Source: Dudresnaya verticillata
Taxonomy: Eukaryota
DNA length: 64,000 nucleotides
Reading direction: 5' to 3'
Assembly (NCBI GenBank): GCA_977862235.1
Contig: OZ374564.1
Span: 2,232,001-2,296,000 of the forward strand
Made by a program: the position numbers and the translations under genes
Notes under the pieces: generated by a model
The model's input: the letters and a program-made list of their open reading frames with translations, nothing else
The model's database searches: none
Told to the model about the DNA's origin: nothing
Part shown: in pieces, positions 1-61,763 of the stretch
How positions within the stretch are numbered: the first letter of the stretch is position 1
Layout: the number at the start of each line of letters is the position of its first letter

Positions 1-1
1 C

Positions 2-28084: not shown

Positions 28085-29923
28085 ATGAGTCTGCACGCAC
28101 TCACACTCCTCGCTCTCCTGCTCCACCTCGCAGCTGCGCTCTCTTTCCCCAAGTATGACCCATCCGTCGACCACCCATTCCTTACCGACAACCAGTTCTC
28201 CTCCCTTCCCAAGCATCAAGCAATCATTGGCTCCACCTCCTTTGGCGATGGCAGCCGGCCCTCCAAGCACTTACCCGTCTTCATCCCCGGTCTCGCCACC
28301 TACGTCGAGCACGATTCCGGCGCCCTATTCGCCGACAGCCTCGACGCACTTTTCGTCTCGGTATGCAGATCCGACAACCCTGCCTACCTCCGCGTTACCC
28401 TAACCGCCTCCACTCGCGTCTTTGTACTCATCACGAGCACGTATTACAACCCTAACAAGGCACCGAAGGATACGCTCTCCGTGACCGGTCTCCCCGACGG
28501 TTGGGGCTCCCCGCGCGCGCTGCGGACGCAAGATGGTCAGCCCATCACCTTCAGGACGGCCCGGATGAACAGTTGGAGCCAGTTGGACAGTCACGTTGTG
28601 GCCGTGGAGAAGAGTTTCGGGGCTGGCGAGCAGGTTAAGCTCCCATGTGCCCCAAAGTTCCGTGTCAACGGCAGGAAGGGTAAGTCGTACGCTTTGCTTT
28701 TCGCTCAGCCAGGGAGTTCGGCCGCGCCTCCGACACGCTTTCCGTACCAGCAGACTCCGGCCACGTTCACCAATCGCCAGACGGGGGTTCAATCGAGACC
28801 GGAGCAAGTCAGGCCGAACGAGGACTGCCCTGCTTGGGTACATGACATGTACGTCACGCCCGGCCGGGACAATGACGTCGCTCAAAAGGAGGCAGAGCCC
28901 AGATTCTGGAAGACATGGCACGCCCCTATCGAACCGTACTTTTGGTGTTACTTTGGACACGAGCATGGCGCATATCCGGGCAAGTACAAGCCGATGCTTG
29001 ATTACATGGCATGGAAGACTCAAGATAGTAGCACAAGTACTGGTCGGCAGAACGAGTCGAACGGAGGCTTCAAGATTGCTGCGCTTCCACTCTATTCTGA
29101 GAAAAAGTATGTGGTGCTCGTTGTCCACATGCACCTTTCCAGCTCGCGGCGGTTCTCGGCTCGTCACCACACGATCATCTTTGCGGTGTTGAACGAAAAG
29201 TGGGAGCTTGAAATGGAGCTTCACATGAAGGGGGACTTTGGGTTTGCGTTTACGCGCAAGGTTGGCAAGACGCTGTTCCCATTGAACGTGCAGCAGGAAG
29301 ATATCAGACAAGAGATTATCAGGAAGAAGATGATTGCCAACCGTCGATTCAATGTTCTGGACGCAAGCAACTACCCGGATAGTGTGGACAAGACGATTCG
29401 AAACAACGATGGGTTGAAGGCAACAGAGGAGAATAGAGCGAAAATCATGAGGGGTAACTACGAGCAGTGGAAGGCCGTGCTGACGACATGTTCTAAGAGT
29501 GCGGGCAGGAAAAATGCATTCATCGACTTTGATGTGACGAATCCCGCAACGGCAAAGCTGACTATTGACGGACCCAACGACGCGATGCAATGGCTGAGCG
29601 GGGACTCACGGAACCGTAACCTGAAAATTGCGATGCCGCACGTTGATGTGGGGCTCGAGCATTGCGTGTTCGAGGACCAAGTTATGTTTCGTGCTGCTAT
29701 GGAATCGGACGGTGTTTTCTATACAGACTCGTATTTCACGGTGGCGCGTGGCAGCTCTGACACGTTCTCCCCTCGACAATTCATCAAGCCAGGGTTTGAG
29801 GGAATTAGAATTATGGGTGGAAAGTACACTGCGGTAGACCAGAACACAGGGCATTATGAGGTGCCGGGGCTGAAGCGGAAACCGTTGAACCCTGAAGGGG
29901 CAATATTGAAGACAAGGAATTGA
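28085..29923 (+). CDS. Secreted protein of unknown function (612 aa), diverged copy 3
   Basis: ATG 28085 gives signal peptide MSLHALTLLALLLHLAAA, colinear with copies 1 and 2; upstream region 26641-28084 also paralogous. Confidence 0.9.
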   Translation: MSLHALTLLALLLHLAAALSFPKYDPSVDHPFLTDNQFSSLPKHQAIIGSTSFGDGSRPSKHLPVFIPGLATYVEHDSGALFADSLDALFVSVCRSDNPAYLRVTLTASTRVFVLITSTYYNPNKAPKDTLSVTGLPDGWGSPRALRTQDGQPITFRTARMNSWSQLDSHVVAVEKSFGAGEQVKLPCAPKFRVNGRKGKSYALLFAQPGSSAAPPTRFPYQQTPATFTNRQTGVQSRPEQVRPNEDCPAWVHDMYVTPGRDNDVAQKEAEPRFWKTWHAPIEPYFWCYFGHEHGAYPGKYKPMLDYMAWKTQDSSTSTGRQNESNGGFKIAALPLYSEKKYVVLVVHMHLSSSRRFSARHHTIIFAVLNEKWELEMELHMKGDFGFAFTRKVGKTLFPLNVQQEDIRQEIIRKKMIANRRFNVLDASNYPDSVDKTIRNNDGLKATEENRAKIMRGNYEQWKAVLTTCSKSAGRKNAFIDFDVTNPATAKLTIDGPNDAMQWLSGDSRNRNLKIAMPHVDVGLEHCVFEDQVMFRAAMESDGVFYTDSYFTVARGSSDTFSPRQFIKPGFEGIRIMGGKYTAVDQNTGHYEVPGLKRKPLNPEGAILKTRN

Positions 29924-31170
29924 TGGGTGCACAAAGCATCTAAAAGCTACAGTCAATAGAGTTGGTGTGCGAAGAGAATTGTCGGATAGCGTACATAGCC
30001 TTGTGCACACTGCGTGAATACCTGTGAAGAGTCAAAATGGGGAGTAGAGAGCAGTGATAGGTCTGAGGCAGCCTGTACATTCTCACTTTGGCCGTGCGTA
30101 TGCTCGAACGTCTGCTACCCGGTGCCTGCAATTACCATCCCGTTGGGCACAAGCGGCAGCAGCGCCAGGAAGGTGGTAGTTATCAGCGGCGGCGCTGCGG
30201 TAGGCAGCAGCACGAAGAGGCATGTCTATTTCTCTGTGGCGTTTCTATAGTCGCTCTATCTTTGTTATCTTGTTGCTTTTGATCAATATCTCACCTTCTC
30301 CGTTTTCTAGCGCTGGCAATCAATCGCCGTCGTCTTGCCCTTCAGGTAGGTCCTTGAGTAGACCGGGCGACCTAGCGCCCTTCGAACCCTACCATAAAGT
30401 TCCCCATCTCTCTCTCTTCAATCACTGTTTTTTTCTGTTTAGGGCGACAACCTGGCGGCGGGCGGGGATGAAGAAGAGTAGAAGCGGCGCGGGTGCGGCG
30501 CGTGGGTGCGGCGCGCGGCCGCATCGCAGCTGCGCGGGGCGTGGCTTTCGGTGGCGCAGCGAAGGCGGCGGCGCGAGTGGCTGACGCGCTGGCTTGTCGA
30601 TCGGCCGGGGGAGCAGACCGGTAGTTTGTTGGTCAGTGTGCGGAGTCGACGTAGATTTCGGCGGCTCGATCGGGGCGGGTGCGTGGGTACACGTACTTTG
30701 CCCAGACTTGTGGAGTTCGTTATTATTATTACTATCGCGGTGCGCCCGGAGTACGGCAACAAGCGGAGTGATGAACAACTATGGCCTTAAGGGAAACACC
30801 GCCGCGGCGGCGGGACGCGTTTTACCTCCGCGGCGCGCGCGAAGCCCGGCTCTGGCGGCGCGTCGACAGAGCCCGCTCTGCGACAGGCGGGTCTTTTAGG
30901 GATGCTCCGCTCGCATCGCCAACAACGCCTGAACACGTAGCCGCTCGCATCGGGCACGCTGCCGCCGTCGCGCCGTCGAACAACCACACCCACCGTTGCG
31001 GCAACAACCCACCCGCGCCTCGTACGTGCGCGCGTTTCGCGCTTTCCGACACCCCTAACAATAAGGCTAGCGATTCAACCCACTCATGACAGTGCCAACA
31101 CACCTGCTGTTAGCAACAACAACACCCCGCGCCCGCCGTCGCGCCTGCCCCATGACTGCCGCACCCCGCC

Positions 31171-31171
<1 letters not shown>

Positions 31172-31210
<39 letters not shown>

Positions 31211-31223
31211 GCCGCCGCCGCCG
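31172..31223 (+). repeat. Compound (GCT)n(GCC)n microsatellite just upstream of the glycosyltransferase ATG
   Basis: Seen directly. Confidence 0.9.
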
Positions 31224-31240
31224 CACCAGCACCAGCAGCC

Positions 31241-33346
31241 ATGAGGCACGAGCCTGCCAAGCCGCGCGCCTCCCCCGCGCTCCGCCTGGCCCCCGCCGCG
31301 GGCTGGTCCAGCCTGCGCGTGCCGGCGCTGATCGCTGTGAGCGTCCTGCTGACGGCCGTGCTCACGCACGTGGCCACGCTCAACCTGCCGCATCTACGCG
31401 CGGTGTCGTCGTCCGCGCTGCGCCCGGCGTCGCTGTCCGAGGCGGACCCGCCGGCCGCGCCGGCCGCGCCGAGCCCTGCGCCGCCGCTGGCGGTCGCCGC
31501 CCGCGCGGCGCGCCTCGTCGCCACCGCCTGGCTGCGCCACCTGCGCGCCACCTCCTCCCCGCCGGGTCGAGTGGTCACGGCGCGCGCAGGCTGCCGCGAG
31601 TACCACGCCGGCGCGCAGAGCTGCGTGTACGACGGCATTGTGTGCATCAACACCTCGCTAGCCAACACCAAGGTCCGCCCGGAGGTCTACTTTGTGGACG
31701 ACACTAAGCCGGACGGCCAGGTCGTGCCGTCGGACCGCTGGTGTAGCCTGCGCCACCAGTCGGCCGACCCCAGGTACTATGGCACGCGCCAGTGGCCGAT
31801 TCTCAACGGCACGGTCGCGCCGAGGGCCTCCTATCTCGAGGCCTACTATCGCACCACGAAGAGCTTGTTTGGCAAACGCCTTGACAGGGAGCAAGGCGCG
31901 GATTGGAGCAATGACCACCTGCTTCGCCAGCATAAGATTCGCTGGCTTGATCAGCTTTGGCTGCTTGACTTTGATAACATCAAGACCGATCACAACAACC
32001 ATCTTCTCATGGATGTCATCTGGATGCTTGACGTCGTCCTTTGGCAGCACGCCGCAGACTTGCAGAGACGCCCGGGCATCACAGACCCCAACATTCCGTT
32101 CAACGAATCCGTGGGCCATTTATTCCCGCCAACCCCGCCGCAGCTCTACTTTCCAATGAGCGAGCAACAGTTTGTCTTCCAGACAAGGCGCGACATCAAC
32201 CGCCTTGTCTACGGACTCGTGCTTCACCTCGACCTGTCGCAGCTCTATCCGAATCTCACCGCCAAGCAGCGTCAAACCCCGCCTGACAGCCCTCGTCTCA
32301 CCACCCCGATGTTTGAAGCCTTTCCAGAGCTTAAGAAACGCGAGCGCTTCCTTTTCCACACCGACCTTCGCAACGAGAGTAATACCGATTTGGTTTGCAC
32401 CCCGCGCTTCACTGCCGGTGCAAAGATGGCCACGGGCGGCCACGAGCGCGTCTGCCGGTTCATGCGCCGTCGCGGTTTCGAGCTGTATGGTATCCCTGAA
32501 ATCCCGATGGTCCGCCTGGGACACACCTACTACCCGCGGCCCCCAAAAAGGATTGTCATCTTGCAGCGTCACGTCACCAGGGGCATTGCAAACCTGGACG
32601 CCCTGGTAAAAGCCCTGCACGACGAATTTGACAAGTTCGATGTTGAGATCGAAGTCGTCAAGACAGACAAGGTCCAGACTGCCGAGGAGCATGTCCGCGT
32701 CTTCTCTAGAGTTGGTGTTCTCCTTACCCCGCACGGTTCTCAGTCAATGGGTATGATATGGATGCCACGGCATAGGTTCGTTTCCGACACGCGCCCCCAG
32801 ATCCCAGATTATGTTCTGCCCTACGACCAGCTCAACAAGATCGACCTCGCGATTGTCGTTTTCAGCGTTCGCTTCGTGCACGAGTTCTGACATCATGCTC
32901 TCTCTGGGTTTTCCCTTCTCTTGCGGCTGTCTCATTCTGTGCGCGCGTTCAGTTCCATAATTGAGGTGATGAACGTCGGCCATTACGATTATGCGTTCAA
33001 CTTGCTTTCTGAGAGCTGCCAAGTTTGGTATTATGAGCTACAGAGCTTGCGACCTAAGAGTAAGTTTGCATCTCTAGCCGGAATCCCCCCGAAATGACGA
33101 AGTTTTACGAGCACAGAGCTGACCATTCGCTTTGTTTTGCTCTCCACGCATTTTCCAGACCGTCCTAGGGAGTACTACATGAAGCATTGCGGGAAACGGG
33201 TTCCCCATATGCACAGTCCATGTCATGCCGTCAAAACCGTGGATCTGGTTGTTGATATTCCGGAAGCCATCAAGACGATAACGCTCGCCTTGGAGCGCAT
33301 GGGTTACGCTCTTGGAGAATGGCTGGATCGCGTAAAGGTGGGTTAG
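31241..33346 (+). CDS. GT61-like type II membrane glycosyltransferase, about 609 aa; exons 31241-32775, 32953-33059, 33159-33346
   Basis: N-terminal TM anchor and Pro/Ala stem; RIVILQR...RGIANL, EEHVRVFSRVGVLLTPHGSQSMGMIWMP, then SIIEV after splicing; GT-AG introns with CTGAC branch sites keep the frame. Confidence 0.82.
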
Positions 33347-35109: not shown

Positions 35110-36874
35110 TATTTTGGCGATGGCTTACAGAAAGTGGGATTCGTTAAGCTCATGGGCGGAATACCTGTACTAATCGAGGAACTGTGCTCAACCGCGGCAA
35201 ATGTGCGGATGTGGCGCTGGAACGCCGTAGTGGAGAGACTCGTACGACTCCGACAACTACAGTAGCTAACCTAGAAGCTAACGAGCCGAGGTGATCTGCT
35301 AGCTAGTTATCCAAACTCTGGTCTTGATTGGAGCCGAGCGCTATCTTTAGGTCAATGTCGTAAAATCGGCTTGGGTTTGTCCACGGAGGTGGACGCGTCT
35401 TGGTGTTGGGATGATAACCGGCCCTACTCGACGGTATGTAGTCGGGAGGGGTCGGGACACACGCGGGGGCCGGTGCGTATAGTGCCGGGTAGATAGCGAC
35501 GGCGGCCGGTGAGCTGACGAAGTTCTGGAGAGGTGCAGTTGGTAACATTTGTGGTGAAGCGGCCGTTGTGAAGTGCCGACGACGGTTGAGCCGACTCGCG
35601 ACCGGCGCACCGGTGAGCTGGCGCCAAAATCCGAACGGGAGTGCAGCGACACAGTAGCACTGTACGCCTTGCTGGCGTCTGCGCGCACCACCAATAGGAG
35701 CCAAGTAGTTGATTTATTTGTAATTAAGTAATTGTAATGATGCTGTACAGTACGTAGTGTCAGCCGGCCAATGAGAATGCCGAGCATGTCCGCAACGGTG
35801 ACCGGGACCACTAGGGCCGGACCCACCTGGTGGCCCAGACCCATTGGGGTATGGCCCACCCGGACCGGACCGCGGGGCGTATCTCCCAGTATATTAATGG
35901 GTGGGCACCGCGAGTCCTACAGTAAACGGGCACGCAACCCTGGGCAAAGTGAATTACCCTAAGCCTTACCCTCATACGCCTTTACGGTTTCCCCTCGCCA
36001 GCCCCGTGCACGGATTCCTCTTACCTCCGTCCCGGTGTAGCTGCCCTGGCACTGTACCGTCCCCCTTGTCTGTTGCGTCCCTTTACTCCTTACAGGTGTT
36101 GCCGCTCGAGGTACTCCCTTCGGTCTACGAACTAAGCTCTACCACCCCGGTGCCGTGTGAGATCACTCCTTATTGGGATTGCCTGATCAGCTCTCCTTAC
36201 AGGTGTGCCTTTCACTTCACCACATCTTCACAAAATTCTTGGTGCCGGGAAGTAGGGAGCTTCCCGGTTCACGGCAACTTTATAGTCCTGTAGCGCTAGG
36301 CTTGACTGTGTAAAACTAAACGGACAGGGGTAAAAGCTAAACGGAGAGGGATAAATTAGAGGGCGTCACCCAGGAATGGGTCTTAACACTACCAAATAGA
36401 AGCTATTCCTACAGCGTGGAGTTGGCCTCGCTGTCCAATGTTTGTCTAAGCGACGGTAAAGTAAACTGCATGGGTGACCTTGCCCATATTCTATAGTGGA
36501 GGAGGATAGAGGTATCCGGTCCGTGGGGGCCAGACCCTAGTGGTCTGGACCCATGGTGGAATCGGCCCTGCTGGTCCCAATCTCCGACACGGACATGCGC
36601 AGCATTCTCATTGGCTGGCGCACTACTTGACGTACTGTACAGATACTCATTAAAAATAAAGAATAAACACTACAAATACTCCGATATGGTTGGTGTGCTT
36701 CACTGCTGTACAGCAATGCGTACCGGCGTACAGCAATGCGCACAACATCCGACACGGTTACACGTTGCCAGATCATCAGCGTGGCGTATTGCCACATCAC
36801 CCGTTACGGTTGGCTCGCCGTCGGTGGGCCGCATTCTCGCCACGGCTCACTTCACCACAGACTCCCCTCCTTAA

Positions 36875-39850
36875 ATGGCGCCACGTCCTCGGGCGCCCAC
36901 CGTAGCGGATCACTATCGCTGCCCCACCCACGAACACACAGACACCCGATACGGAAGTGTTCTCATCAACCCCTTCCCCTTTTTGCGCGCTTCTCCCACC
37001 ATGTCAGGGGAGAAGACCAAGCGCTCTCCGTCGCCCTTTCAACCGACACGGCGTTCCCGCGCTGCTTCCACTACGCGGGCGCAGGGCGCGCAAACCGTTA
37101 CGGATGCTTCGACGCAAGCGCCGGCTTCTTCCTCGGCGGCAGCGACGCGACCCGCGACGGGCGGTCGTACGAGCATTACCGTGACGGAACCTTCACCGGC
37201 TCCATCAGCGAGCCGAGGGTGGTCGGTCTATGATCCGAATCGGTTTGCTGCGAGCGCTGCCACAAGGCCCTTGCTACCAGGGAGTGCAGCGACTCACCGT
37301 GACGGAGAGGCGCCAACCAAGGAGCGCGATGATGCGTTCCGTCGTGGTGGCGAGGGGCTCAACTTGGCAGACCTACCGGCCATTCTGTTACGGACACCAT
37401 CGACACCGGTATCGACGCCGAGTCGTAGGATGGTTTCCAGTCCACATCCTTCCTCAAGTACACCGAGACGGATGCGTGGGCCCCCGCAAAGCAACCCACC
37501 TGCTCCGGGGCCTTGGTGGCCGGTAGTGCATACCCGTGACGGAGAGGGCCCTGCCCCGAGTGGTTATTGGCCGGGGCACCACTTTGACCATCGCGCGGGG
37601 CGCCCGGCTAGAACCGATGCGGAAAGGGCCAAGATTAAGCCCCCGATGACGGTGGACCTCTTCATTGAGAAGTATCCAACCGTCTTGGAAGCAAGAAGGT
37701 ACAAGGCCGTCATGGCACAACCCTTCAAGGCGAATCAACGCATTGGCGTTGTTCCGAATCGGAGAGAATTTGTGTGGCAAAGCCGATGGGTGCATGGCTA
37801 TTGTCAATCGAGGACCTCTACCGTTTCGGATTTGTTGTGGTATCGCTGCCATGGGGAGGTAGGATATACCGCAAAGGTGAGTCACCTGTTTGCCACAGGT
37901 TTCCGTCTCCGGGGTGCGCCGGTCGGAGTGCAATTCATTTGCTTCGACCGCCCCTATGACCAATCGGTATATTGGTTCCGCTATGCCGATGGGTGGAAGG
38001 ACGATGCCGCGACGGAACACCGTTTGAGAGCTCGTTCCCGTGACGGAATACAAGTTGGCTCGCCAATCCTGCATACGTGGAACACTAAGGAGTTCTTCTA
38101 TCTTCCGTATCGGGTGCGTCGTGTATTGTACCTTACAGCTCCGTCATGGTGGGCGCGTTATGAGGTGACCCGTTGGTTGTCGGTCCCCATGCCGTCGGTC
38201 GTAGCGTACTTCTCGGCGGACTTACTCACCGAACGGGAGTGTAATCACAAGCATCCGAACGGAGAACGTCCCCCGAATCAAGATCAGCTCGATGTACTGT
38301 GGCGCATCTTCCGATCGGAATGGGCCATGCTGGTGCTCTTCTCGTGGCTCCAGGTGGACTATTACGGAGTACGGTATAACACCAAGTTAGCTGACTGGCG
38401 ATGCTTCCCACGGGATGAGGATGGCCTGCCCGGAGGAGACTGTGGCCGTATTTTTCAACTTCCCGTAACGGTGATCGCCCTGATTCGCGAAGTCGGCGTA
38501 GCCGATTTAGTGACGGGGTCGGCATACCCTCTCCATCGGGTTGAGCGTCTTTTATCCGTACACGGAGAGCAAGATTGGCAACGCACTCCGGGCTTCTTGG
38601 GGTATAATTGGGACGAGGACCGTGTCCTATCGGTGCCCCCGCTGAGGCCCGGAGTGGGTGAGCCATATTTCCTTCATCGAGAAGATCCGCGTCCGGAATG
38701 GTTGGCCTTAGAGGTGCAGGCCCATCGGGACTATGCCTCTCGCCAAGCACCAAGGGATGCGTACCGTGACGGTTTGGATGGGGCTGAAGATTGGGGGAGC
38801 TGTCAGGAGGCAGCGGGGCGTACGCGTACAATCGACCCACGCGATTCCGTTACGATGAGGCAGCAAGAAGCTGACCCCTTCTTGGAAGAACAGGAGGAGG
38901 TCACGCCCGTTGCCTCAATGGTAGCGGGTAGCGAGAAGACACCCGCTCCAATTCTTCCGGTGGTCGCGACACCCACATCGCGCGATGTGGATCGTGAGAC
39001 TACTACTCCCGTATCGGATAAGGCCCCAACGCCCATGGGTGTGGCTGCGCCGACTATGGCGGTGCCCAAGTCTGCGGCACCATCCGAGAAGGGGTCTTCA
39101 AAGGAGCAGACCGTTTCGGAAGTGGCGCCGGATACTGTGCCGGCGGCACTGTCTCCTGCGACGCAAATGCCTGCCGCCGTGGAACCGCTCCCGCCAAGTG
39201 CTCCGCTGTTGGCGCCCACTCCCACACCAGCGGGGAATGCGGCGTCGATCACCGTATCGGAAGTGGCTGCAAAGCGCCCAAGTGTTGGGGCAACTGGAGA
39301 CAAGCCCTCGGTTCTCGCACCAAATCCTGAACCGTTACGGAAAAGCGATATTGCCTCGCCAGAGAAGGACACGGATCCACCGCTGCGGAAGGACGTACCT
39401 TTACCTGAGTCGGGACCGTCCGTATTGGTAGTTTCCTCAACGGAGCATTCACTTGAAGCCGGGGTTAGGGATCAGCCGTCGATCTCCCCGAAGGTAGAGT
39501 TGCAAGAAGATGAGGATCCCCCCGTTACGGTTCCGGCTCATTTAGCCGCTATGGAAAGTGGGTTGCAGGTGCTACGGGGCATTTGCCGTACGCAGCGCTT
39601 CCCATTGCCAGGATCCGTTCAGGAAGTGTTAACCTTAACGGAGGGGCTGATGGAACAGGTAATTCATCTCCGCGCGGTGGTCCGTCGTCAGCGTCGGCGC
39701 ATGGACAGTGCGGTTCGCGTCTTGGGAGACACTACGCAGCGCGTATTCCAATCGGATCCGAGTGGGGAACCCGGCTTACGAACGGGTCAGGGGAGCAACG
39801 AGGAGGATACAGTTGCCCCTGCTCCGAAACGGCGTCGACGTAACTCTTAG
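36875..39850 (+). CDS. Antisense accessory ORF of element C (991 aa), function unknown
   Basis: Uninterrupted 3-kb ORF between pol and the 3' LTR; central domain clearly homologous to the antisense ORF of B. Confidence 0.85.
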   Translation: MAPRPRAPTVADHYRCPTHEHTDTRYGSVLINPFPFLRASPTMSGEKTKRSPSPFQPTRRSRAASTTRAQGAQTVTDASTQAPASSSAAATRPATGGRTSITVTEPSPAPSASRGWSVYDPNRFAASAATRPLLPGSAATHRDGEAPTKERDDAFRRGGEGLNLADLPAILLRTPSTPVSTPSRRMVSSPHPSSSTPRRMRGPPQSNPPAPGPWWPVVHTRDGEGPAPSGYWPGHHFDHRAGRPARTDAERAKIKPPMTVDLFIEKYPTVLEARRYKAVMAQPFKANQRIGVVPNRREFVWQSRWVHGYCQSRTSTVSDLLWYRCHGEVGYTAKVSHLFATGFRLRGAPVGVQFICFDRPYDQSVYWFRYADGWKDDAATEHRLRARSRDGIQVGSPILHTWNTKEFFYLPYRVRRVLYLTAPSWWARYEVTRWLSVPMPSVVAYFSADLLTERECNHKHPNGERPPNQDQLDVLWRIFRSEWAMLVLFSWLQVDYYGVRYNTKLADWRCFPRDEDGLPGGDCGRIFQLPVTVIALIREVGVADLVTGSAYPLHRVERLLSVHGEQDWQRTPGFLGYNWDEDRVLSVPPLRPGVGEPYFLHREDPRPEWLALEVQAHRDYASRQAPRDAYRDGLDGAEDWGSCQEAAGRTRTIDPRDSVTMRQQEADPFLEEQEEVTPVASMVAGSEKTPAPILPVVATPTSRDVDRETTTPVSDKAPTPMGVAAPTMAVPKSAAPSEKGSSKEQTVSEVAPDTVPAALSPATQMPAAVEPLPPSAPLLAPTPTPAGNAASITVSEVAAKRPSVGATGDKPSVLAPNPEPLRKSDIASPEKDTDPPLRKDVPLPESGPSVLVVSSTEHSLEAGVRDQPSISPKVELQEDEDPPVTVPAHLAAMESGLQVLRGICRTQRFPLPGSVQEVLTLTEGLMEQVIHLRAVVRRQRRRMDSAVRVLGDTTQRVFQSDPSGEPGLRTGQGSNEEDTVAPAPKRRRRNS

Positions 39851-39950
39851 AGTTACAGCTCGACGATCTCCTTAACAGTTTCCATTATGCCTCGATCTTA
39901 GCTTGCGATAAACGTTGTGTGTTCTCACACCCCAGTATTCCAACTGTCCG

Positions 39951-42900
39951 TTACGGTGAGTGACGTGTTGGATTAGCACGTCGCCGTGGCTTACCCTTAG
40001 CGGATGTCTTTTTCTTTTGCTTCCAATATCGGTAGATGAAATTCTGTGGTAACTCCTCCGCGGGCTCAAAAGTGTCCTGATCCGGAGGGTAACCATACCA
40101 GCGGACTTTGTATGTCATCCCAGTAGGTTCGTCGCGGTGACCGACAATCTTGTCGATCACATATTCCGTATCGGCTTGCAGTGGTTCCATCGCGGGGGGC
40201 GTAGTACCTTCAGATGGAGGTACTACTGTAGTACCTTCTGGATGTGGCACTACTTCTCCGTAGACGGTTGATGGCGTGACAGGCGGCACTGTTAAGGGTA
40301 CCGGCTGAACCGCGACTCCGATCGGAACCTTAGTGATGCGATCGATACTTACGGGGATCAATACCCCTTCCTTGCGGATTGTAGCGACATGTTCCGTTGC
40401 GGATTACACGTCATAAGGCCCCGTGGCTCTCGGAAGGAGTTTCTTCATTTCCTGAGCCACTTCGCCCACATCGCCCGGTTTGCCTTCCAATCGGTCCCGC
40501 TCACGGCGCTCGGCCGGCCGCAAGTTATGGGGCGGCCGGTCGACATAGACTTGATCTCCGCTTCGGATTATGGGCCTAAAGCGCACCTTACGGTCAAACA
40601 GTGCCTTGGCTTTTTGCTGAGCCACTGTCTGCTTCGTGCGCGCTGTCTGGAGCGCGTACCGTAAACGGCGCATGGTGCTCCGCTTCTGTAGCACCGGGGT
40701 CATACGCCCTTCCGTAACGGTTTCTTGATGCTCGACAGGAGCCCCTCGTACAACAATATCCGATGGGTGGCGTGTCAGCACCAAATCAAATGGCGTTGTT
40801 TCCGTAATACGGTGTACCTGCATGTTGTACGCATATGTCAACGGTTGCAGGTACAAATCCCAATCGGAGTGATGATCCTCGACGTAATGGCGCAAACGTT
40901 GGGCGATTGTCTTATTAAATCGCTCAGCTTGCCCATTTGTCTGCGGATGATAGGCAGCGGTGAGCAGGTGCCTGACTCCGAGTAAGGAACACACCGCGTC
41001 GAAGAACTTAGCAGTAAACTGCGGTCCGTTATCGGTTAGGACAAATTGGGGTGCGCCGTAGGCGTACACCCAAAAGTCCAGAAAGGCGTTAGCCACCACA
41101 ACGGCTGTTGTTGTCCGTAACGGGATACAGCGCGTTAGCTTAGAGAACCGATCGGTTATTACCAGAACGTATACATAACCCCGTTTGGTCTTCGGAAGTG
41201 GCCCGAGAATGTCGATAGCGACAAACGCCAAAGGTCCGCTAGCGGGGAAAAGTTTCATAAACCTTTGATTCCGAAAGCGGGTTCCCTTTGTCTTCACGCA
41301 GGAGCGACATGTCCGAACGGATTCAAATACATCGTTGGCCATATGAGGCCAATAATAATCCTGTCGGAGTGTGTAATACATCTTAATTCCACCTGGGTGA
41401 CCCGACATCAGGGTATAGTGGGAGAAATATAATACCCGTCCACGGAGTTCGCTTGGCACCACCTTCTGTAGAGCGCCATCCAATTGGGACTTGCGTACCA
41501 AGAATCCGTTACGGTCATTGTCTAACTGTGATCCAGGGGAGCCTACCGTATCGGCTTTGAGACGACAGAAAGGGTCTCTGGCTTGCGCTTCGAGGAACTC
41601 CTCCCTGGCAATTGTCTCATCCTTAACTTCGGATTCTTGGATTACAGTAAACCGTGACGGTATTGCGTCAGGCTTGTCAGGGGAGGCGGATGCGCTCCCA
41701 CTGGAGTGCTCCACGGCGCATATTACGTTATTTTCCGTAGCGGTTTCTCGCGATGTGTCCCAATCGGTTAAATAGACGCCATGCTCATATAATCCGTTGA
41801 CGGTATTTTCGGCGATAAAGCAGGGTATCTCTTCATGCAAAGGTCTATCGTCACAGCCATCCGTTCGGAGTCGCGACATCCCATCGGCAAGTTGATGCTT
41901 AATTCCAGGACGGTATTGCACCTCAAATTCAAATTCCGATAGGCGGAACCTCCACCTGGCAAGGCGGCCAGATGAGTCTGCGAGGTTCAGGATCCACCGC
42001 AGGGCATCGTGATCCGTTCGGAGAATAAACTTGTCACCGTAAAGGTAGGGTCGGAGTGTTAACATGCTCCAGACCACGGCTAGGCATTCCTTTTCGGTTG
42101 TCGTATAATTTTTCTCCGCATCGGTGAGGCTTCGGCTCCAGTATCCAATAGGGAGGTGATCGCCATTCGGTTGCTCCTGCAGAAGGACACAGCCGACTTG
42201 ATGGTCACATGCGTCAGTGTCCAACGTATATTTATATCCGTGATGGGAGAGCCAATATAGGTGGAGAGATAAGGCGTCTCTTCAGTTCCTCGAAGGCTTC
42301 ATATTCCGTATCGGATAATATTCCAAACTCAAAGGGTGAACCCTTGCCGGTTTTCTTATTTAGCGGAGCTGAAATCCGAACGAAGTTGGGTACAAAGCGA
42401 CGATACACGTTGCACATTCCCAAGAAGGATCGCAATTCCGTTTGGTTTGTCGGCGGCTTCGCGACCTTGACGGATTGGATATTTCTATTATCCACTTCTA
42501 ATTTTCCGGGACGGATAACATGCCCCAGGTATTGTACAGACGCGTTGAAGAAGTCACACTTTGACAATTTCAACGTTACCCCAGCGGATCGTAAAAGCGT
42601 AAGGACTTCCTTCAGGTGGTGGAAATGTTCCGTAACGGTTTTTGAGTAGACAATTACATCGTCTAGGTAGACGAGGGCAAATTGCCATTTAACCGTAGAA
42701 AGGATTATATCCACTGCCCGTTAGAAGGTTGCCGGTGCATTTTTCAATCCGAATGGCATTCTCCGAAAACGGTATAAGCCAAAATGGCTAGTGAAGGTAG
42801 TTTTGTCCCTTTCCTCTTCCGGAATCTCGACTTGCCAATATCCGCTATTGCAATCCAGGGTGGTAAATACAGTAGCTTCCCCAAGGGAATCTATGATCTC

Positions 42901-44221
42901 ATCCATCCTGGGCAAGGGATATGAGTCCCTAACCATTACGGCATTGAGCCTTCTATAGTCAACACAGAACCGCATGGTGCCGTCCTTTTTTGGAACGAAA
43001 ACCACGGGGCTGGCCCACTCCGATGAGGCTGGTTCAATTACCTTAGCGGAAAGCATGCGATCGATTTCTGTCTTTTCGAGATCTCGCTGCTTATGTCCGG
43101 CACGGTATGGGGCTTGATATACTGGCTTAGCTCCAGGAGTTAACTCGATGCGGTGCTTGGCAGCTGTAATGTTGCCAAGATCGCCACTCCACATCGACTT
43201 ATATTCCTCGAGTAGGGTTAAAATCCGTTTGCGGAGCGATGCTTCTTCTGTGCCGATCTGGACTTGATCCTTCCAGTCGGTAGTATTTGTATTTTCCGTT
43301 ACGGGTTTACTTACTTCCTTGTCGTGAGGGGAGATGCTGCTGGCCTTTTCGGAGGTAGGGTTAGAATTAAATGATTGAATAATTCCTCCCCCCTCCTTAA
43401 ATGGAGGTATACCGTCAACGGTAAAAATAGCAGAGGGGGCAGCAGTAGCGAAGCCCACGACAGTAGATTTGGGCAACCGTACCGGCTTGTTAGAAACATT
43501 AGAGACCCAGATCCGAAACGGTTTGTCAGGTACAACATCCATAATACCATTAGCCATTAACGTAAGGTGCTTAAAAGTCGGCTTAGGATGATTTTGTAGA
43601 AAGCATAACCCACCCGTGGGGTATTAACCGTTACGGTGGTTTGAGTCATAGGGGGAATAAGGGTAGATTTTCCTAACGAATTTTCTGAGAAACCGTAGCG
43701 GTAGAAAGAGGTGAGGGCTGTAGGGTTGCAGTGGTTCCCGTCTTTGGAATTTTGGCTTGACCAACAAGGGATACCGGTGGGGAATGATGAAAAACAACTT
43801 TCCGTAACGGAGGGAGGATTGCCTTCACGTAGCGGTCGATGAAGGTAGTTCCCAAAATACAGGGAGCCGCCAAGTTCGCGACCACTAGAAAATGGACGCG
43901 AGCGCGGAGCTCTCCGACACGGACGAAAAGTTGGATCTGACCAAGAGGGCGTATAGCGCGATTAGACGCATCCCGTAATGGAGGACTGGCTGCTGGGCGT
44001 ATGAGTGGGAGACATTGGCGCGGAAGGCGCCTGGCACTAATGAGATTGGGCCCAGCGCCAGAGTCCAAGACGGAGATTAAAGGAAGCATCACGTTATCTG
44101 TCCGTCCCACGGTAATTTGCATCTTGTAATTTTGATGTTGCATAAAGAAGATAGTATCATTGGTCTGATAAGCTAATGGGAGTTCCGTAACGGTATCTCG
44201 CCGATCCCCTGGCGGGTCCAC
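39951..44221 (-). pseudogene. pol: pol of element C (PR-RT-RH-INT-chromodomain), disrupted
   Basis: LDSGA, LDCNSGYWQ, YLDD, DTDAC, TDNGPQF, YKVRWYGYPPDQDTFEP; several stops and frameshifts. Confidence 0.95.
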
Positions 44222-44265
44222 ACTCGCGAGAGGTGGAACGCCGTGAGGCGGGGATGGCGGTGCCC

Positions 44266-46746
44266 TTACGCATCCCCCCTTGAGTTTTCCGAATTCAAGG
44301 TTGCACCAGTCGGATCCGCCTCCATGGGCTCGCGCAATTCTGCGAGTTCCACTCCGTCATGGTCCTCCACCGATAGTATCGGGGCATTCCGTTGCGGAGG
44401 GGGCGTTTGCGGTGTGCCCCTATTCCCTTGCGGATTCAAACTGGTTCCTACTACGAACCTGCGACCTACAGGGTAGTGCTTCTGGAAGTTGCGCTCGCGC
44501 TCTTCCATAAGCCTAACCCGATCGGATTCATGTATCCAGGGACAAACAACGTGCTCTGGAGAAAGGCAGATGCGACAGTTACCACTTCCGTAAAGGCGTC
44601 GGACCCGAGGATCCGACTCATCCCGTAGCGGAGGTGCTGGTTGCTGCTGTTCTCGCCCATCGTGAGCATTATTTCCGTAACGGTGACTCGGCTGCTGTTG
44701 GGGGCCAGGAGCCGGGCGAGATCCACCATAGGGGGGACCTTGCGCGCGTGGCATCCTGGGCGGAGTAGGGTGGACGCTTTGCGGGGGTGAGTAGTACGGG
44801 GTAGAAAAGGTAACCCGCGTGCTCGTTCCCGTAGCGGCACCGTGGGCTCCCTCGACAGCTAAGACTTGAGCATCCGTAACGGAAGGATCTGCTTGCGGAT
44901 CATAGTGTACATCCGAGACGGAATCCAGCGATAACACCTTAGACGGGCGCGCTTTAGTGCGCCCATCAAAGACGTGAGCCGGAACGGTTTGGCGTCGAGC
45001 TGCCCGATGGGACTGACCCAGGCCAGTCGCATAGCGAGTGATGGCCTGATAATCCAACTGGGAATGCGTCGCTAGATAATTTCTCATCTGTTGACGAGTA
45101 CCCGGTAGGAGTCCTTCAACGAACAGTGACTTCAATGCCCGATCGGAAAATACTGTACCGCAACGGAGAGCCTTGGCCCAGAGCTGGTTCGAGAACTGCT
45201 CTTCCGTCAGGGCGGATGTTTGCCTGAAGTTGCTGACATACGTATAGGCTTCAGTAATCACTTCATCCGTAGCGTAGGTTCTCAATAAAAAGTTCACCAC
45301 CTCGGAATATGTGCGGAGCATCTCGGCCTGCTCCACATCAACCGCCATCGTACCTCCAGCAAGCCTAGCCTGTAGAAGGGCTTCGGCCTGTCCTTTAAGG
45401 AAAAACTGGAAGCACCAGACGGCAACCCCTTCGGCGATGCCGTTGATGTTACAGCCGTCACGGAACTTGGCGAGAAATCCCAAGACGGTATTCGAGTCCG
45501 TCCCATCGAATGTATGGGACGACATCTGGACGTCGAGTTTCTTCCGTATACGGCTCATGTTCTATGAGAACTTAGAGCCGTATGTCTTACTCCTCTTATC
45601 CAATCGGTAGGTGCGGTAGTCCAGCGCCTTGACAAACTTGTCATGTAGCGGCCGGATTACCTTCACCTTTCCGGATTTGGCACCGTGTTTTCTGGCCCGG
45701 TCCCTATTCTCTCTATCCGTTACGGAAGAACTCTCTGAGTCTGAATCCGTAGAGGTAGAGGATTCATGCCTTTTTTCGCGTTTCCGCGATCTTCTGTTTC
45801 TCCTCTTGCGGCAGCGGTGTTGGCTATCCTCTGAGCTGCTCTCATTGGATTCCATACCGGATTGGTGGCGTCGTCGCTGGGTGTGGTCGCCCATGTGCGA
45901 CCGACGGGGAGGGTCAGAGCGGGAGTGTCGGGCATCTCGTTTATGCCGACCTCGACCGGTCCTCCGACTCGGATGGGGTGAGCTGGACGCATCGCTGAGA
46001 TGGTCGCTGCCTCCACCTGATCGAACCGGAACGGTACAGCGCTCTTGCTGATAGCGCCCTGGCGTAGGCACATCTACGTGTCCAGGAGAATACCGTAACG
46101 GTGGCTGAGTGTGTGTTGGTCCCGTAGGGGCGTGTTAATGTTGAGAATCCGTTACGGGAGCCGGTGGCAGTGGCCCAGAGGGTACTGTGCCCGGCGGCAA
46201 TCCCATAACGGGGGGTTGTTGCGGCTGCTGCGTTCTTCCCTCGACCGGGAATCCATTCCGTAACGGTGGTTGCTCAGTAAAAGCTTCCATAGCGGGAGGC
46301 CTTGCCATGCCGGGAGCAATCTGGCTCTCGAGCTCGGCGGCCACCTTTTCCTGTAGGATCAAAGCTTGCACTATCCGAGGAAGGTGCTGCTCCAGATAGG
46401 AATTAACCAAAGACGGAACAGTTTCCGAGAGGGATATCTCCACCTCTTTTACCATTCCAGGTTGTACTTCCAATCGGAGATGCTCTAAAACCCTAGGAAG
46501 GATCTCCGACAGGACCCAGTGGACCCGATGGGATTCCGGCTTGGGTTGCGGATCTGCCTTCTTCGAGGCGTCTCATCCGACACGGGAACAGGGAGCTTTA
46601 CCAGCAGCACCCTTTAGGATGTCTTCTGGGTTCTCCACTCCGGAACGGATTTCACCTCCTTCACTGCGCAAACTGCGCGCAGCGGGGGTAGTGTCACCCG
46701 CTTTAGGTTCCGTAACGGGAGGGTCTGCGTGTTCTTCGTTCTGCAT
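44266..46746 (-). pseudogene. gag: gag of element C, disrupted
   Basis: Colinear with gag of B (FVKALDYRTYRL, WCFQFFL); internal stops at 46135 and 45562. Confidence 0.85.
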
Positions 46747-47716
46747 GATACCTTAACGGAACACAACGGTTGTTCTTGCTTGTCTATCCAATATTCCGTA
46801 ACGGGTTGTCGGTACAGCCGAATTCCTACCGTAGCGGATTTTGACGGCTGTTTCTTCCAACCGTAACGGTGTTCTAGGTCGGGAGACCAAAAGATGTGGT
46901 GTAGTGAAAACCCACGAACTCCGAGACGGACAGCTGGCCTGACTTTCCTTAACGGACGAGACCAACACTACCTCCACGGGGTGGTAGAGCAGTTCGCACC
47001 GAGACGGGAGAACAGCGAGCGGCTAACCGAGACGGATATTGGGAAGCAACAGACAAGGGGGTGGTACAAGTGCCGGGACGGACTCCGTAACGTGGTGGTG
47101 GTAGACCGCAACGGGCTCGGCGCGGGGAAAACCGTAAAGGATTGGGCTAATGTTGCTTACCCGTTTACCTTAGGAGCCGCTGCGGTGCCGCCCTGATATG
47201 CAAGTCAGGGTGGCACCGAGTGGTCCGGTCCATGGGGGCCAGACCCTAGTGGTCTGGACCCATGGTGGAATCGGCCCTGCTGGTCCCAATCTCCGACACG
47301 GACATGCGCAGCATTGTCATTGGCTGGCGCACTACTCTACGTACTGTACAGATACTCACTAAAAATAAAGAATAAACACTACAAATACTCCGATATGGTT
47401 GGTGCGCTTCACTGCTGTACAGCAATGCGTACCGGCGTACAGCAATGCGCACAACATCCGACACGGTTACACGTTGCCAGATCATCAGCGTGGCGTATTG
47501 CCACATCACCCGTTACGGTTGGCTCGCCGTCGGTGGGCCGCATGCGCGCCACGGCTCACTTCACCACAACCTAGAAGGCCGTCAAGGTAGAAGAATCTCC
47601 GTTGGACTCCGCTTCGGTAGGAGGTCAGCTTCGTGACAACTCCGTATTGGTGTAAAGGAAGGACAAGGCAAAACACTCGTTGACTCCGTTTTGGTAACCT
47701 ACGAATAGAAGAACAC

Positions 47717-50304
47717 ATGGACCCTACCGTATCGGATCAAGGTGAGGTGCCGTAAACCGTGAGATCACGCCGCGGTGACGATAACACCATCCCGGAGGTG
47801 CCCTCTACTGCGAGAACACGCCGCAGTGAGTCCACCGAACCGGAGGTAGCCTCAGCCACGAGAACACGCCGTGGCGATGCTGCCGACCTGAACCCCGGTA
47901 TGGAGAACCCCGAAGAACTCCTTAAAGGTGTAGCCAGTAAGCTCGCTAGATCCCTACCTGGTTCAGACACTTCCCGCAAGGGTGTATCCAAGCCAGGTGA
48001 CTCCAATCGTGTCCATTGGATACTTTCGGAGGTCATCCCACGGGTGTTGGAGCATCTCCGTATAGAGGTGCAACCCAACATGGTCAAGGAGGTTGAGACC
48101 ACGCTCGCCGACACCGTTCCGGTCATTGTTAGCTCCTACCTGGAGAAACACCTTCCGGAGTTGGTACAGACGCTCATCCGTCAGGAGCGTCAGGCGTCGG
48201 AGATCGAGAAGATGCTCATCCCCGGACAACCCCTACCGGAACCCAAGGAGCCGCCCTTTTCTGGACCTACACCGATACGGAATAACTTCCCGGTCAAGGG
48301 AGAAACGACGTATATGTCATAAATCCCCACTCAGGTGTTTCCGCCCGATCCGGTAAGGACAGCGGCAGCCCCTGGGTTACCTACCCAAACTCAATACACC
48401 GAATTGGAACCAACACACCAACCCCAACCGAATCGGAGTACGGTCCCTGGACCCGCAGAATTGCCTGCGGGGGAACGTATCACCGTGCCGGTGGCTTCGC
48501 GTAGAGGCAGTGAGCACTCCGATGGTGACTCCAAGAAAAACCAAGACCGGAGTGGTAGAGACAGTGCTGACAGAAAGGCCAAGGACTCCCACTCCGATAA
48601 GGAACGTGACCGTTCGCAACGGAGCAAATGCGCTTCGCGACGGGACAAAGAACACTCCGGTACGGAATCTGATGATAGCCAACACCGCAATAGGAAGAAG
48701 AATAAGCGCAAGTCCCGCCATAGGCGACGAAAAGGGCATGACTCCTCCCATTCCTCTGGCTCTGATACGAGCTCCTCCGATACGGATAGGGACGAGCGGC
48801 GTCGGGCCAGAAAACACGACGCCAAACACCGAGAAGTCGACAGGCCAATCCCAAAGGTGATCCGGCCCCTGAACGACAGGTTCGTGAAGGCGCTGGATTT
48901 CCGAACATACCGACTGGAGAAAAAGAGTTCATACTACAGCTCTAGCTTATCCAAGAATATGGGACGTATCCGCAAAAAGCTGGAGGTGCAAATGAAGTCC
49001 CACTCCTTTAACGGTACAGACCCCATCACGTTCCTTGGATTTCTCGCGAAATTCAAGGATTCGTGTAACATCAACTCCATTTCGGAAGGAACCGAACTGT
49101 GGTGTTTCCAGTTTTTCTTAAGTGGACAGGCTGAAGCTTTGCTTCAGGCCCGTCTCGCTGGTGGCACCATGGCGGTCGACGAGGAGCAAGCAGAGATGCT
49201 TCGCACCTATACCGAAGTGGTGAACTTTTTGCTAAGGACTTATGCTACCGATGAGGTGATTACCGAAGGGTATTCGGACGTAAAGTCGTTTCGACAAACG
49301 TCGGCCTTAACGGAAGAGCAATTCTCCAACCAACTTTGGACTAAGGCACTCCGATGCGGTACAGTATTCTCCGACAGGTCCCTCAAGTCGCTGTTTGTGG
49401 AAGGACTCCTACCGGGGACGTGTCAGCAGATGCGCCATTATCTGGCAACACACCCCCACATGGATTACCAAGCCATCACCCGCTACGCTAAAGGGCTTGG
49501 AGAATCCCATCGGGCAACCAGACGCCAAACCTCAGCGTTGCACGTCTTGGACGGAAAACCTAAGAGTCAGTCACGACGCTCTGGCATTCTGTCGATTCGT
49601 TCTCCATCGGATTATACCTACTCGGAGTATCCCGCTGAATCGGAGGAGCACGTGCTCGCTCTGGAAGGTGGCGCGGGTCGAAGCGCCGGCACCTCGTCGG
49701 GGGTTACGTTTACTACAGCGTACTCTTCCCCAACGAGTAGTGTCTACCCTACTCCGCCTCGGACTCCCAACCTTCGCCCACCAGCGCCACGGATGCCACC
49801 ACCCCGGCAACCCCGATACGGACCGGCTGATAGCCGCTACGGCCCCGCCACACACCGTCAGGGAACCACCGGGCAGCATCCTAGCCATATTGGACACCCC
49901 CACGGCAACATGCCTCCCCGTCAAGGGCAGGGCGAACACCGTATTGGAAAACAATCCCCTGCCGCAGGGCATACGGATCACATCTCACCGGATGTCAGAC
50001 GCCTCTATGGAAGCGGCTACTATCGCTTGTGCCTCTCCCCGGACCATGTAATTTGTCCGTATCTGAGCGACACCGAAAGGGGTCCCCTGATGGAAGAGCG
50101 CGAGCGCAACTTTCAAGCGATCCTCCTCAAGCGGCAGGCCTTCGCCAACTCCAATACGGGAAATCTTCCGCCGGGCAACTACCAGCAACGCCCCGCACGG
50201 GTGCTGACTGTCGATGGTGGTGCGGTTGGCGAGCCCCCGCTGATATGGTGGAGGAGGCACTTATGGCGCACCCCGACTCGGAAAACGTCGCAGGAGACGT
50301 GTAA
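47717..50304 (+). pseudogene. gag: gag of element B, disrupted
   Basis: Homologous to gag of C; stops at 47753 and 48320, frameshift near 50240. Confidence 0.85.
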
Positions 50305-50330
50305 GGGCGTCCCCGTCTCCTAAAAGCGAC

Positions 50331-53300
50331 GTGGTACGCCCACCCGTACGGGCTTTGCCGGACTGTCAGTCCGCCACCATTACGGAGTACCCCCTTGATT
50401 TTGTTCCAGAAATCCCCCTTGAATTTCCACCACCCGGTGATTCTGTCTGTGTTCTACAACGGCAGAATTATAAAATCCAGATTACCGTGGGAAGGAGTAA
50501 TGACCTCATGTTGCCTATCAGCACCGTATTGGATTCTGGTGCTGGGCCAAATCTCATTAACGCCCGACGGTTTCCACGCCACTGGTAATCGTTGCCTCGC
50601 CCCGCTGCCAGTCCACCTTTACGGGATGCGTCCAATAGGTCGATACGCCCGCTTGTTGTCATTCAACTTTTTGTCCGTATCGGAGAATTGCGTACTCGAG
50701 TCCACTTCCTGGTGGTCGCGAACCTCGCTGCTCCGTGTATTCTGGGAACCAGTTTTATTGATCGCCATGTCAAGGCGATCCTCCCACCGGCACGGAAAGT
50801 TGTTTTTCATCACCACTCCCCGGTTTCGCTAATGGGACAAACCAGACACTCCAAAACGGTGGCTGCTTCTACCCTTCAGGGCCCCCTGTGTCATCCGCTT
50901 CGGTATCGCAAAAGCTCCGACTAGCAAAATCCCTTATTATCCCCCCTATGACCCAATCCCTTGCATTGGTCACCACTCCTACCGGTGGTTTGTGTTTTCT
51001 TCAAAACCATCCCAAACCCATCCAGAAGCACCTCACCCTTATGGCTAATGGAGTTATGGATATAATCCCTAACAAACCCTCTAAGGTGTGGCTGACTAAT
51101 TTTTCCCCCAAACCGGTGCGGTTACCCAAGTCTACCGTCCTGGGCCTTGCTACTGCTGCTCCCTCTGCCATACTCACCGTTAACGGTGTACCTCCATTTA
51201 AGGAGGGGGGAGGACATATTAATTCCTTTCCTGCTCCTCCTAATGAAAGCAGCAAGGCTACACCCCAAGATGGATTCAAAGGAAACACCGTATCGGAATC
51301 AACTACAACTCCTAACACCGATTGGAAAGATAACATCCATATTGGTGCCAAGGATGAAAAACTCCGCGCTAAGGTGGTTACACTCCTCGAGGAGTTCAGC
51401 ACTATGTGGAACGGCGAGTTAGGAAATATAACTGCCGCGAAACACCGTATTGAATTAATGCCTGGTGCCAAACCGGTGTATCAAGCACCACATCGGGCAT
51501 GACATAAACAGCGCGAGCTGTAGAAGGCAGAAGTGGATCGTATGTTGTCCGCTAAGGTGATCGAGCCATCCGCTTCGGAGTGGGCCAGCCCTGTGGTCTT
51601 TGTTCCTAAAAAGGACGGCTCCATGCGGTTTTGTGTCGATTACAGGCGTCTTAACGCTGTCACCGTTCGGGGTTCATACCCTTTACCCCGGATGTATGAA
51701 TGTATCGACTCCCTTGGAGAAGCTACAGTATTCACCACTCTGGATTGTAATAGTGGCTACTGGCAAGTAGAGATCCCCGAGGAGGAGCGTGACAAAACTA
51801 CCTTCACCAGTCATTATGGATTATACCGCTTCCGGAGAATGCCTTTTGGGCTCAAGAAGGCACCGGCTACTTTCCAACGGGCGGTTGACATCATCCTATC
51901 TACGGTGAAATGGCAATTTGCCTTAGTCTACCTGGATGATGTGATTGTATATTCTAACATCGTCACGGAGTATTTCGAACACCTTAAGGACGTCCTCACG
52001 CTACTCCGTTCCGCAGGTGTAACGCTGAAATTATCAAAGTGTGCCTTCTTTGACACTCCCGTACAGCATCTAGGCCACATAGTGCGCCCGGGCCAACTGG
52101 AAGTGGAACGGAAGAATATTCTCGCCGTTAAGGAGGCTAAGCCACCTACAAACCAAACGGAGTTGCGCTCTTTTCTAGGGTTATGTAACTTCTATCGACG
52201 CTTCGTTCCTAATTTCGCACGTATTGCTCCGCCACTCAATAAGAAAACCGGCAAGGGTCTGGTATTCGAGTTTGGAACTCTCACCGAAACGGAGTTTAAC
52301 GCCTTTGAGGAGCTAAAGAGACACTTAATCTCCCCTCCAATATTGGCTTTACCCCGTCACGGTTTCAATAATACGTTGGATACCGACGCTTGTGATTACC
52401 AAGTTGGGTGTGTCCTTCTCCAGGAGCAACCTAGTGGAGATAATCTACCAGTGGGTTACTGGAGCCGAAGTCTAACCGATGCGGAGAAGAATTACACAAC
52501 CACTGAAAAGGAGTGCCTTGCTGTAGTTTGGAGTATGCTAACGCTACGCCCCTACCTTTACGGTGAAAAGTTTATACTCCGTACGGATCACGACGCATTA
52601 CGCTGTATATTGAGTCTAGCCGATGCGTCTGGACGCTTAGCAAGATGGCGCCTACGCCTATCGGAATTTGAGTTCGAAGTACAATAACGCCCTGGTATCA
52701 AGCACCAACTCGCAGACGGTATGCCGAGACTCCGAACAGGTGGTGTTGACAAAGCTGATTTGGATGAGGAAGTGCCTTGCTTCGTTATGGAATCGACTCC
52801 TAATGGTGTAGTGCAACATGGTGTGCGACTAACCAATTGGAAACAGACCCAGCAGCCTGATGCCGCAAGCAGCCTTGTCCTAGGCGTTGAAAGTGGAGAC
52901 ACCGAAACGGAAACTACGCCTGAAAAGGATACAGTACCACCCACTCCACTCGGGCAAACAGTCATCCAACAAGAGGATATGCGCAATGAGACCCTTACCC
53001 GTGAGGAGTTCATAGCCGCGCAAGCAACAGATACTTTCTGCAAGCTTAAAGCCGAAACGGTGGGATCCCCTGGATCACAATTTGACTACGACCGACATGG
53101 GTTTCTTGTGCGCAAGTCTGCCCTCGACGGCGCACTCCAAAAGGTGGTACCGCAACAGATGCGCGGCAGGGTCCTGTATCTTGCCCACTACACCTTAATG
53201 TCGGGACACCCTGGTGGAATTAAGATGTACTACACCTTACGGAGAGACTACTATTGGCCACATATGGCTAACGATGTATTCGAGACCGTTCGGAGTTGCC

Positions 53301-54679: not shown

Positions 54680-54687
54680 CCAGTCGC

Positions 54688-61746: not shown

Positions 61747-61763
61747 AGGCGAAGACGCCCGTT

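Follow-up and report, generated by a model that had tools for sequence, protein, structure and literature searches.

The closest described parallel to the locus analysed here is VANC of the Arabidopsis VANDAL elements. The accessible portion of the published account describes several features that recur in the element we refer to as C: an accessory protein encoded by the element beside a dense, family-specific 9-base motif, a conserved protein domain with variable flanks, and divergence of the motif between sister families (PMC5735166). According to the same portion, VANDALs are Mutator-like DNA transposons, whereas C is an LTR retrotransposon, and VANC21 targets are mainly non-coding and have grown by tandem repeats, whereas the sites in C are dispersed, palindromic, and mostly located in open reading frames (PMC5735166). 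A structure of VANC21 (9LNK) is named in PMC13547354; the part of PMC12859917 that was covered added nothing on retrotransposons. A second parallel comes from plant Ty3/gypsy elements. Grande, RIRE2, and Retand (TRP28) carry, like C, an antisense ORF between pol and the 3′ LTR; in the covered portions of the two sources, such ORFs have no known function and a nuclear or DNA-binding role has been proposed (PMC7264820, PMC11963269). Unlike these elements, C bears a chromodomain, its antisense ORF has no TRP28 or other Pfam domain, and a candidate target site is visible, which those portions do not report for Grande, RIRE2, or Retand (PMC7264820, PMC11963269). CERV of the C. elegans element Cer1 is likewise an LTR-retrotransposon accessory protein that acts on its own nucleic acid, but it is described, in the part of the source seen, as acting in RNA export, while the sites discussed here are not RNA-stem-like (PMC10309623). 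In the literature covered, from which subscription papers are largely missing, we found no study of an antisense ORF or motif in a red-algal LTR retrotransposon.

All coordinates refer to the window, the whole stretch of 64,000 nucleotides that was analysed. Element C is a Ty3/gypsy chromodomain LTR retrotransposon on the minus strand, as indicated by its TG...CA LTRs, PBS, PPT, and the pol order RT-RNaseH-integrase, with a chromodomain at the C-terminal end of the integrase (39954–40403; PF00385, E 1.4e-11). Its 5′ LTR (46895–47568, minus strand, 674 bp, TG...CA) is followed by a PBS-like stretch (46872–46889, minus strand), which was assigned from its position and TGG start and is identical in element F. 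A gag-like ORF (44266–46134, minus strand) is divided into two pieces by a stop; it shows 52–65% identity to the gag-like ORF of the sister element E and had no match in a Pfam scan. The pol region (39951–44356, minus strand) encodes a protease-like domain (weak), RT, RNaseH, integrase, and the chromodomain, and contains several stops and frame changes; its nearest named relatives are proteins of Chondrus crispus (59%) and Agarophyton chilense, which makes a red alga the probable host. Although gag-pol is broken at several places, the antisense ORF of the same element (36875–39850, plus strand) is intact and encodes 991 aa. The polypurine tract (36862–36872, minus strand) and a truncated 3′ LTR (36515–36859, minus strand, 345 bp, 97.7% identity to the 5′ LTR) complete the element. 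On one side lie the 5′ LTR of E (35550–36224) and the beginning of its leader (together 35550–36514, plus strand), and on the other the E body and 3′ LTR (47569–57127, plus strand); C lies inside the leader of E, and the junction probably carries a deletion. Rfam returned no match.

An earlier note, made from the letters of the window, had listed 24 copies of the palindrome CCGTWACGG in C, and all 24 are exact matches; its estimate of about 37 copies of CCG(W)3CGG also agreed with our count of 37. The window as a whole holds 26 copies of CCGTWACGG, the other two being in E (53483 and 53886), compared with 0.53 in dinucleotide shuffles (maximum 3, n = 100). The wider form CCG-N3-CGG occurs 81 times in C (36515–47568; sites from 36584 to 47518, 24 of them CCGTWACGG), or 78 times without the repeated 3′ LTR copy. 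Shuffles of C that kept 2- to 5-mers (100 each) gave 0.14–3.3 copies of CCGTWACGG (maximum 7) and 6.3–11.5 of CCG-N3-CGG (maximum 19), and synonymous-codon shuffles of six ORF pieces gave 7.8 CCG-N3-CGG (maximum 16, n = 1000) against 54 observed, and 0.6 exact CCGTWACGG against 14. The enrichment therefore did not vanish under dinucleotide or codon shuffling, the outcome that the earlier note had named as fatal to its idea. When spacers of 0–15 were compared in C, only spacer 3 stood out (81 vs 1–16), and when all spaced trinucleotide pairs were scanned without bias, CCG-N3-CGG ranked first in both C and E.

Overall density in C is about 7 sites per kb, and in about 90% of the element a site or a one-arm variant is no more than 100 bp away. 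Sites are most crowded in the 5′ LTR (9 sites, 13.4/kb), the leader (10.6/kb), and, within the antisense ORF, the N-terminal quarter (14.4/kb), and sparsest in the RNaseH-integrase region (4.4/kb). The dense, short, family-specific motif in one orientation that marks VANC-type systems is seen here: C and E differ in their preferences, and the site centres have a polarity in C, though none in E. The arrangement of VANC targets, mainly outside genes and in tandem repeats, is not seen, as 54 of the 81 sites lie inside ORF pieces and none of the three tandem rows in 35500–57500 is a motif array, on which ground a tandem-repeat origin was also rejected. Sites occupy all three codon phases; the earlier note had spoken of several frames. 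Its further claim that the sites shape the proteins is borne out in the antisense ORF (peptide footprint z 5.1) but not in the RNaseH-integrase piece (z 0.6). Elsewhere, the left 35.5 kb of the window has 18 CCG-N3-CGG against about 9 expected (shuffle maximum 15–20), a count raised in part by GC-rich repeats and by a triplicated gene in which one site recurs, and neither element F (1 site in 58424–64000) nor element A (2) shows an excess.

The fixed core of the site is WCC-N5-GGW, with the wider form WCC(G)WNW(C)GGW. CC-N5-GG occurs 189 times in C against 68 expected and 159 times in E against 63, compared with 146 against 141 in the remainder of the window. Where one arm is full, the other tolerates TGG and AGG, and does not tolerate CAG, CTG, or a change of the last G. 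This pattern is not that of symmetric CpG decay and marks CG as the dispensable part of the site: the earlier note had stressed the two CG dinucleotides as methylation targets, yet it is the outer CC and GG that resist change, while the inner G/C tolerates it. Half-sites without a partner show no enrichment (177 vs 199 expected in total), and no two sites in C are less than 27 bp apart where 8–10 such gaps are expected (P at most 0.0005), a minimum distance as for a protein footprint; the effect is not significant in E. A plain MYB-type hexamer was rejected because CCG precedes 23 of the 30 TAACGG in C. Everted CCG/CGG half-sites are known from papillomavirus E2, whose sites (ACCG-N4-CGGT) let a viral protein mark its own genome, and from fungal zinc-cluster factors, in which Zn2Cys6 denotes a six-cysteine cluster. 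The sites in C resemble both in their everted half-sites and A/T-rich spacer, and differ in a spacer of 3, a density of several per kb, and a candidate protein with neither a conserved cysteine cluster nor a fold match.

Comparison with E also shows signs of selection. The earlier note had seen almost none of the motif in E, which is true of the exact 9-mer but not of CCG-N3-CGG, of which E has 41 against 4.7–6.5 expected (27 against 6.2 under codon shuffling). The two elements are about 74% identical across aligned blocks, and of the 34 C sites that could be aligned, 18 are sites in E too, with centres free to change (P 1e-4); single-arm conservation would predict a coincidence of about 22%. 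At four-fold degenerate positions, arm bases are kept in 27 of 34 cases, compared with 154 of 366 for other C/G bases (P 4e-5), which argues for selection on the DNA and not on the protein. The preferences around the arms have shifted: C favours T-W-A centres and W flanks, whereas E is looser and favours C at −2 (T at the first centre base in 100/156 vs 30/82; C at −2 in 33/156 vs 38/82, element C vs element E). Such unlike preferences suggest family-level specificity within one genome. Together, the silent-position conservation, the unenriched half-sites, and the 27-bp minimum spacing suggest that a binding site of dimer type has been under selection. The earlier proposal of a dimeric DNA-binding protein is compatible with the fixed-spacing arms, the conservation, and the spacing.

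Window positions 56453–58423 hold a second PBS and leader after the 3′ LTR of E, in tandem, into which F has inserted, so that C, E, and F form a nest of three related elements. The F family (1–3378 and 58424–64000; CpG o/e ~1.65) has a dyad-like motif of its own that stands up to codon shuffling, with 65 CC-N2-GG against 27.5 expected and 21 ACGAAG against 6.1 under codon shuffling; it is a YYHCGDRR-like, CG-centred quasi-palindrome (TCACGAAG, CTCCGAGG), by a definition made after seeing the data. The single visible F 3′ region (1 kb) gave no antisense-domain match. Element A (16240–22070), a short, CpG-poor (0.73) LTR element with 405-bp LTRs, has a mild excess of the F motif (18 vs 7.3). 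Other genes of the window include an avidin-family gene (8211–9173, PF01382, E 1.3e-20; partial copy at 15713–16242), which would be of note in a red-algal host, a Glycosyltransferase 61 family gene (30941–32890, PF04577), and a triplicated ORF of 625–664 aa (11781–13658, 24486–26363, and 27929–29923), two copies of which were scanned without a Pfam or NCBIfam match.

The 991-aa antisense protein consists of a low-complexity N-terminus, a conserved domain (approximately aa 256–585), a low-complexity middle, a helical C-terminal part, and a basic NLS-like end. Its homolog in E (54838–56440, minus strand; 50% identity over 348 aa) is broken, with the C-terminus cut short. The two ORFs share 46% amino-acid identity and 23/87 silent identity, near saturation, a pattern that indicates selection at the protein level. 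An exhaustive search with aa 250–650 returned 95 representatives at E ≤ 0.001, of which three repeat-like ones were dropped; about 90 remain in the family and 89 were aligned. Ten representatives were looked up and yielded one named cluster, four hypothetical proteins of Gracilariopsis chorda. A basic NLS-like C-terminal motif is present in 11 of 24 long family members, against a background of 12%. The conserved residues include Arg, Asp, Glu, and His as well as aromatic ones, a set that would also suit an enzyme, and no cysteine is conserved among columns at 60% or more, so that the Zn2Cys6 cluster is absent from the alignment, as it is from the Pfam results. None of the 89 aligned members matched TRP28 (PF04195) at E 0.01.

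The conserved domain is confidently modelled (pLDDT 89.8, pTM 0.91) and matched no known family or solved fold: Pfam, NCBIfam, and PDB sequence searches found nothing for it, Foldseek against PDB and viral libraries gave no match at E ≤ 0.001, and the best hit of a wide structural search had Z 3.8 (rmsd 4.7, 105 aligned). A separate model of the C-terminal 126 residues (pLDDT 89.9) reached a best structural Z of 4.0 (rmsd 3.7, 74 aligned), and Foldseek gave only non-significant rows that included lambda Cro and FtsK gamma (E 1.1–6.6); a winged-helix reading of this part is therefore unsupported. No homology to VANC or MAIN was found, and no VANC- or MAIN-like fold appears among the Pfam or structural matches listed, from libraries that may not include 9LNK. 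A word-based protein search (near or longer lengths; second run 1758–5000 aa only) returned no relative of the ORF, and an Atlas search no usable match. Viral contigs contained no relative of the antisense ORF or of pol; four of them (L197, L196, L183, and L136) carry CCGTWACGG copies clustered at short repeat-like intervals, with no RT or antisense-domain match. Another 121 loci, picked for two motif copies lying close together, were dropped, as none had a match to the antisense ORF or to pol.

The likeliest explanation for these results is element-encoded self-recognition, to which we give a probability of roughly 0.45. The antisense-encoded protein, presumably located in the nucleus, would dock on WCC(G)WNW(C)GGW sites along the whole element, would bind them in double-stranded DNA as a dimer, and would coat copies of its own family; by analogy with VANC, this coating would most plausibly keep the copies out of host silencing. 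On our best reading, then, C may work like VANC in logic without being VANC. This interpretation must be made cautiously, however, given the observations that count against it. Signs of methylation are weak, in that transitions between near-identical copies fall at CpG in 24 of 65 cases vs 26% expected (P 0.04), although a review reports approximately 8% methylation, mostly non-CG, for G. chorda, and places H3K27me3 on the repeats of red algae (PMC8566409); the searches recognised no known DNA-binding family or fold for the protein; E keeps its sites although the antisense ORF of this copy is broken; F has a motif with no ORF found; the spacing effect is confined to C at the level of significance; site centres are polar relative to the element in C (P 0.003) and without polarity in E; a peptide footprint of the site as in C recurs in only 2 other long family members; and distant relatives, considered below, have covarying halves and a loose match between ORF and dyads.

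These relatives are the best 80 of 330 confirmed metagenome loci, from a second genome; their pol is 34–46% identical to that of C, and in an integrase tree they group among red-algal elements. They are not ORF-free controls, because 45 of the 80 match an antisense-ORF profile of their own, between pol and the 3′ LTR, which remotely matches the C family (profile probability 72.6, pairwise E 3e-5; reversed control 0.25; key motifs collinear). CCG-N3-CGG saturation was not found in them (median ratio 1.3, maximum 2.2 in 65 loci >4 kb). They are instead rich in dyads of 4-bp complementary arms with 3–5 nt spacers, up to 4 times background: with spacer 4 in L009 (206 vs 50), L016 (155 vs 50), and L018 (165 vs 58), and with odd spacers in L045 (158 vs 46), L006 (153 vs 52), and L077 (213 vs 100), in counts that overlap and from copies that are related. 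Non-element flank (110 kb) gave a flat dyad count with no excess. The saturated families include L009:5777-16076, L016:2160-12430, L045:1551-11478, L006:5678-16700, and L077:2244-13910. These dyads favour CC/GG at their inner end, and their outer pairs covary; in L009 the pair beside CC/GG is complementary in 65 cases vs 28.5. Integrase target mimicry by dyad parity was rejected, since readable target duplications are 5 bp in odd- and even-dyad families alike.

The earlier note had proposed asking whether motif density tracks the ORF. Within the window, the antisense domain was found in C and E alone, which are also the elements that carry the site, but among the relatives the match is loose: L067 has a weak ORF match and no dyad excess, and L077 and L063 have dyads with a non-significant ORF match (probability 0.56). 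An intact antisense ORF of about 937 aa, with in-frame conservation (72% with L077), is present in L063 (5097–7907, minus strand), L065, and L077, and bears a collinear, non-significant resemblance to the domain. Clearer homologs of the domain lie outside the fetched elements, at L015:4346-5476, L057:3184-4474, and L053:15895-16900, apparently within another element interrupted by insertion.

Covariation of the two halves is not explained by base-reading on duplex DNA and suggests a hairpin or cruciform in the relatives. One may accordingly postulate an alternative scenario in which the sites are mini-hairpins on single-stranded or extruded nucleic acid (cDNA, a cruciform, or genomic RNA), read by the antisense protein, Gag, or integrase for packaging, export, or cDNA protection; C and E would then carry, in sequence-fixed form, a structural signal shared by the clade. 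Dyads are kept between the diverged L016 and L018 (37/117 vs 27/168), with compensatory changes in 20/35 vs 9/38, although retention is weaker or absent in other copy pairs; the polar centres of C and the F motif with no visible ORF fit this scenario as well. In C and E, however, the two halves vary independently, flank pairing was not found (23 vs 27.6), inner pairs show no compensation, and strand-specific G-U variants were not found, with outer-position U-G wobbles unenriched. Folding of six sites yielded no more than −1.4 to −3.6 kcal/mol, and one of the six did not form the hairpin. In the relatives G-T is no commoner than A-C, which argues against RNA stems there too. An RNA hairpin was rejected for C and E on the unpaired flanks, the independent halves, and the missing wobble variants, and we regard the scenario as a whole as unlikely, though the most serious of the alternatives.

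A dimeric DNA-binding protein of the host could also recognise the site, with the element having gathered copies for transcription or protection. The resemblance to a standard dimer site, the lack of a recognised DNA-binding fold in the ORF, and the retention of sites in E despite its broken ORF would all agree with this. Nevertheless, preferences differ among C, E, and F in one genome, dyad parity varies among families of the second genome, and non-element DNA has no CC-N5-GG excess, all of which makes a host reader improbable. Least probable is that the motif has no binding function and is a by-product of biased mutation, through CGs surviving in a methylation-spared context or palindrome-making template switches of reverse transcriptase: the motif does hold two CGs, CpG transitions are slightly raised, and fold-back copying could make the covarying dyads of the relatives, but CpG decay was rejected because it would yield TGG and CAG variants in equal measure (in C the counts are 12 vs 2, in E 13 vs 1) and because AGG turns up as often as TGG, while the fixed two-arm spacing, silent-site conservation, and 27-bp exclusion go unexplained, so that a mutation-only reading of C and E is largely refuted.

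Judged from these sequences, saturation with dyads, in a geometry particular to each family, seems to extend across the clade and to be specific to the elements, with C and E as its sequence-fixed extreme. A broader and still tentative proposal, which we hold at distinctly less than even odds, is that a whole red-algal Ty3/gypsy clade has a self-marking code in which a family-specific dyad geometry, written along the full element with its coding regions, is read by an antisense protein of new fold. Sequence-specific anti-silencing in the literature covered is that of VANC in DNA transposons. Element C brings together a candidate protein, with a well-modelled and unmatched domain, and a candidate target, and the C/E pair has shifted specificity, so that self-recognition is directly testable by a binding assay with a cross-over control; counts of dyads give a means of finding such systems elsewhere from sequence alone. 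If the proposal of a clade-wide code is true, LTR retrotransposons would have a self-recognition system, whether anti-silencing or cDNA-protecting, that is independent of VANC, and the antisense domain would be a reprogrammable DNA-binding domain, specific for sequence or for hairpins.
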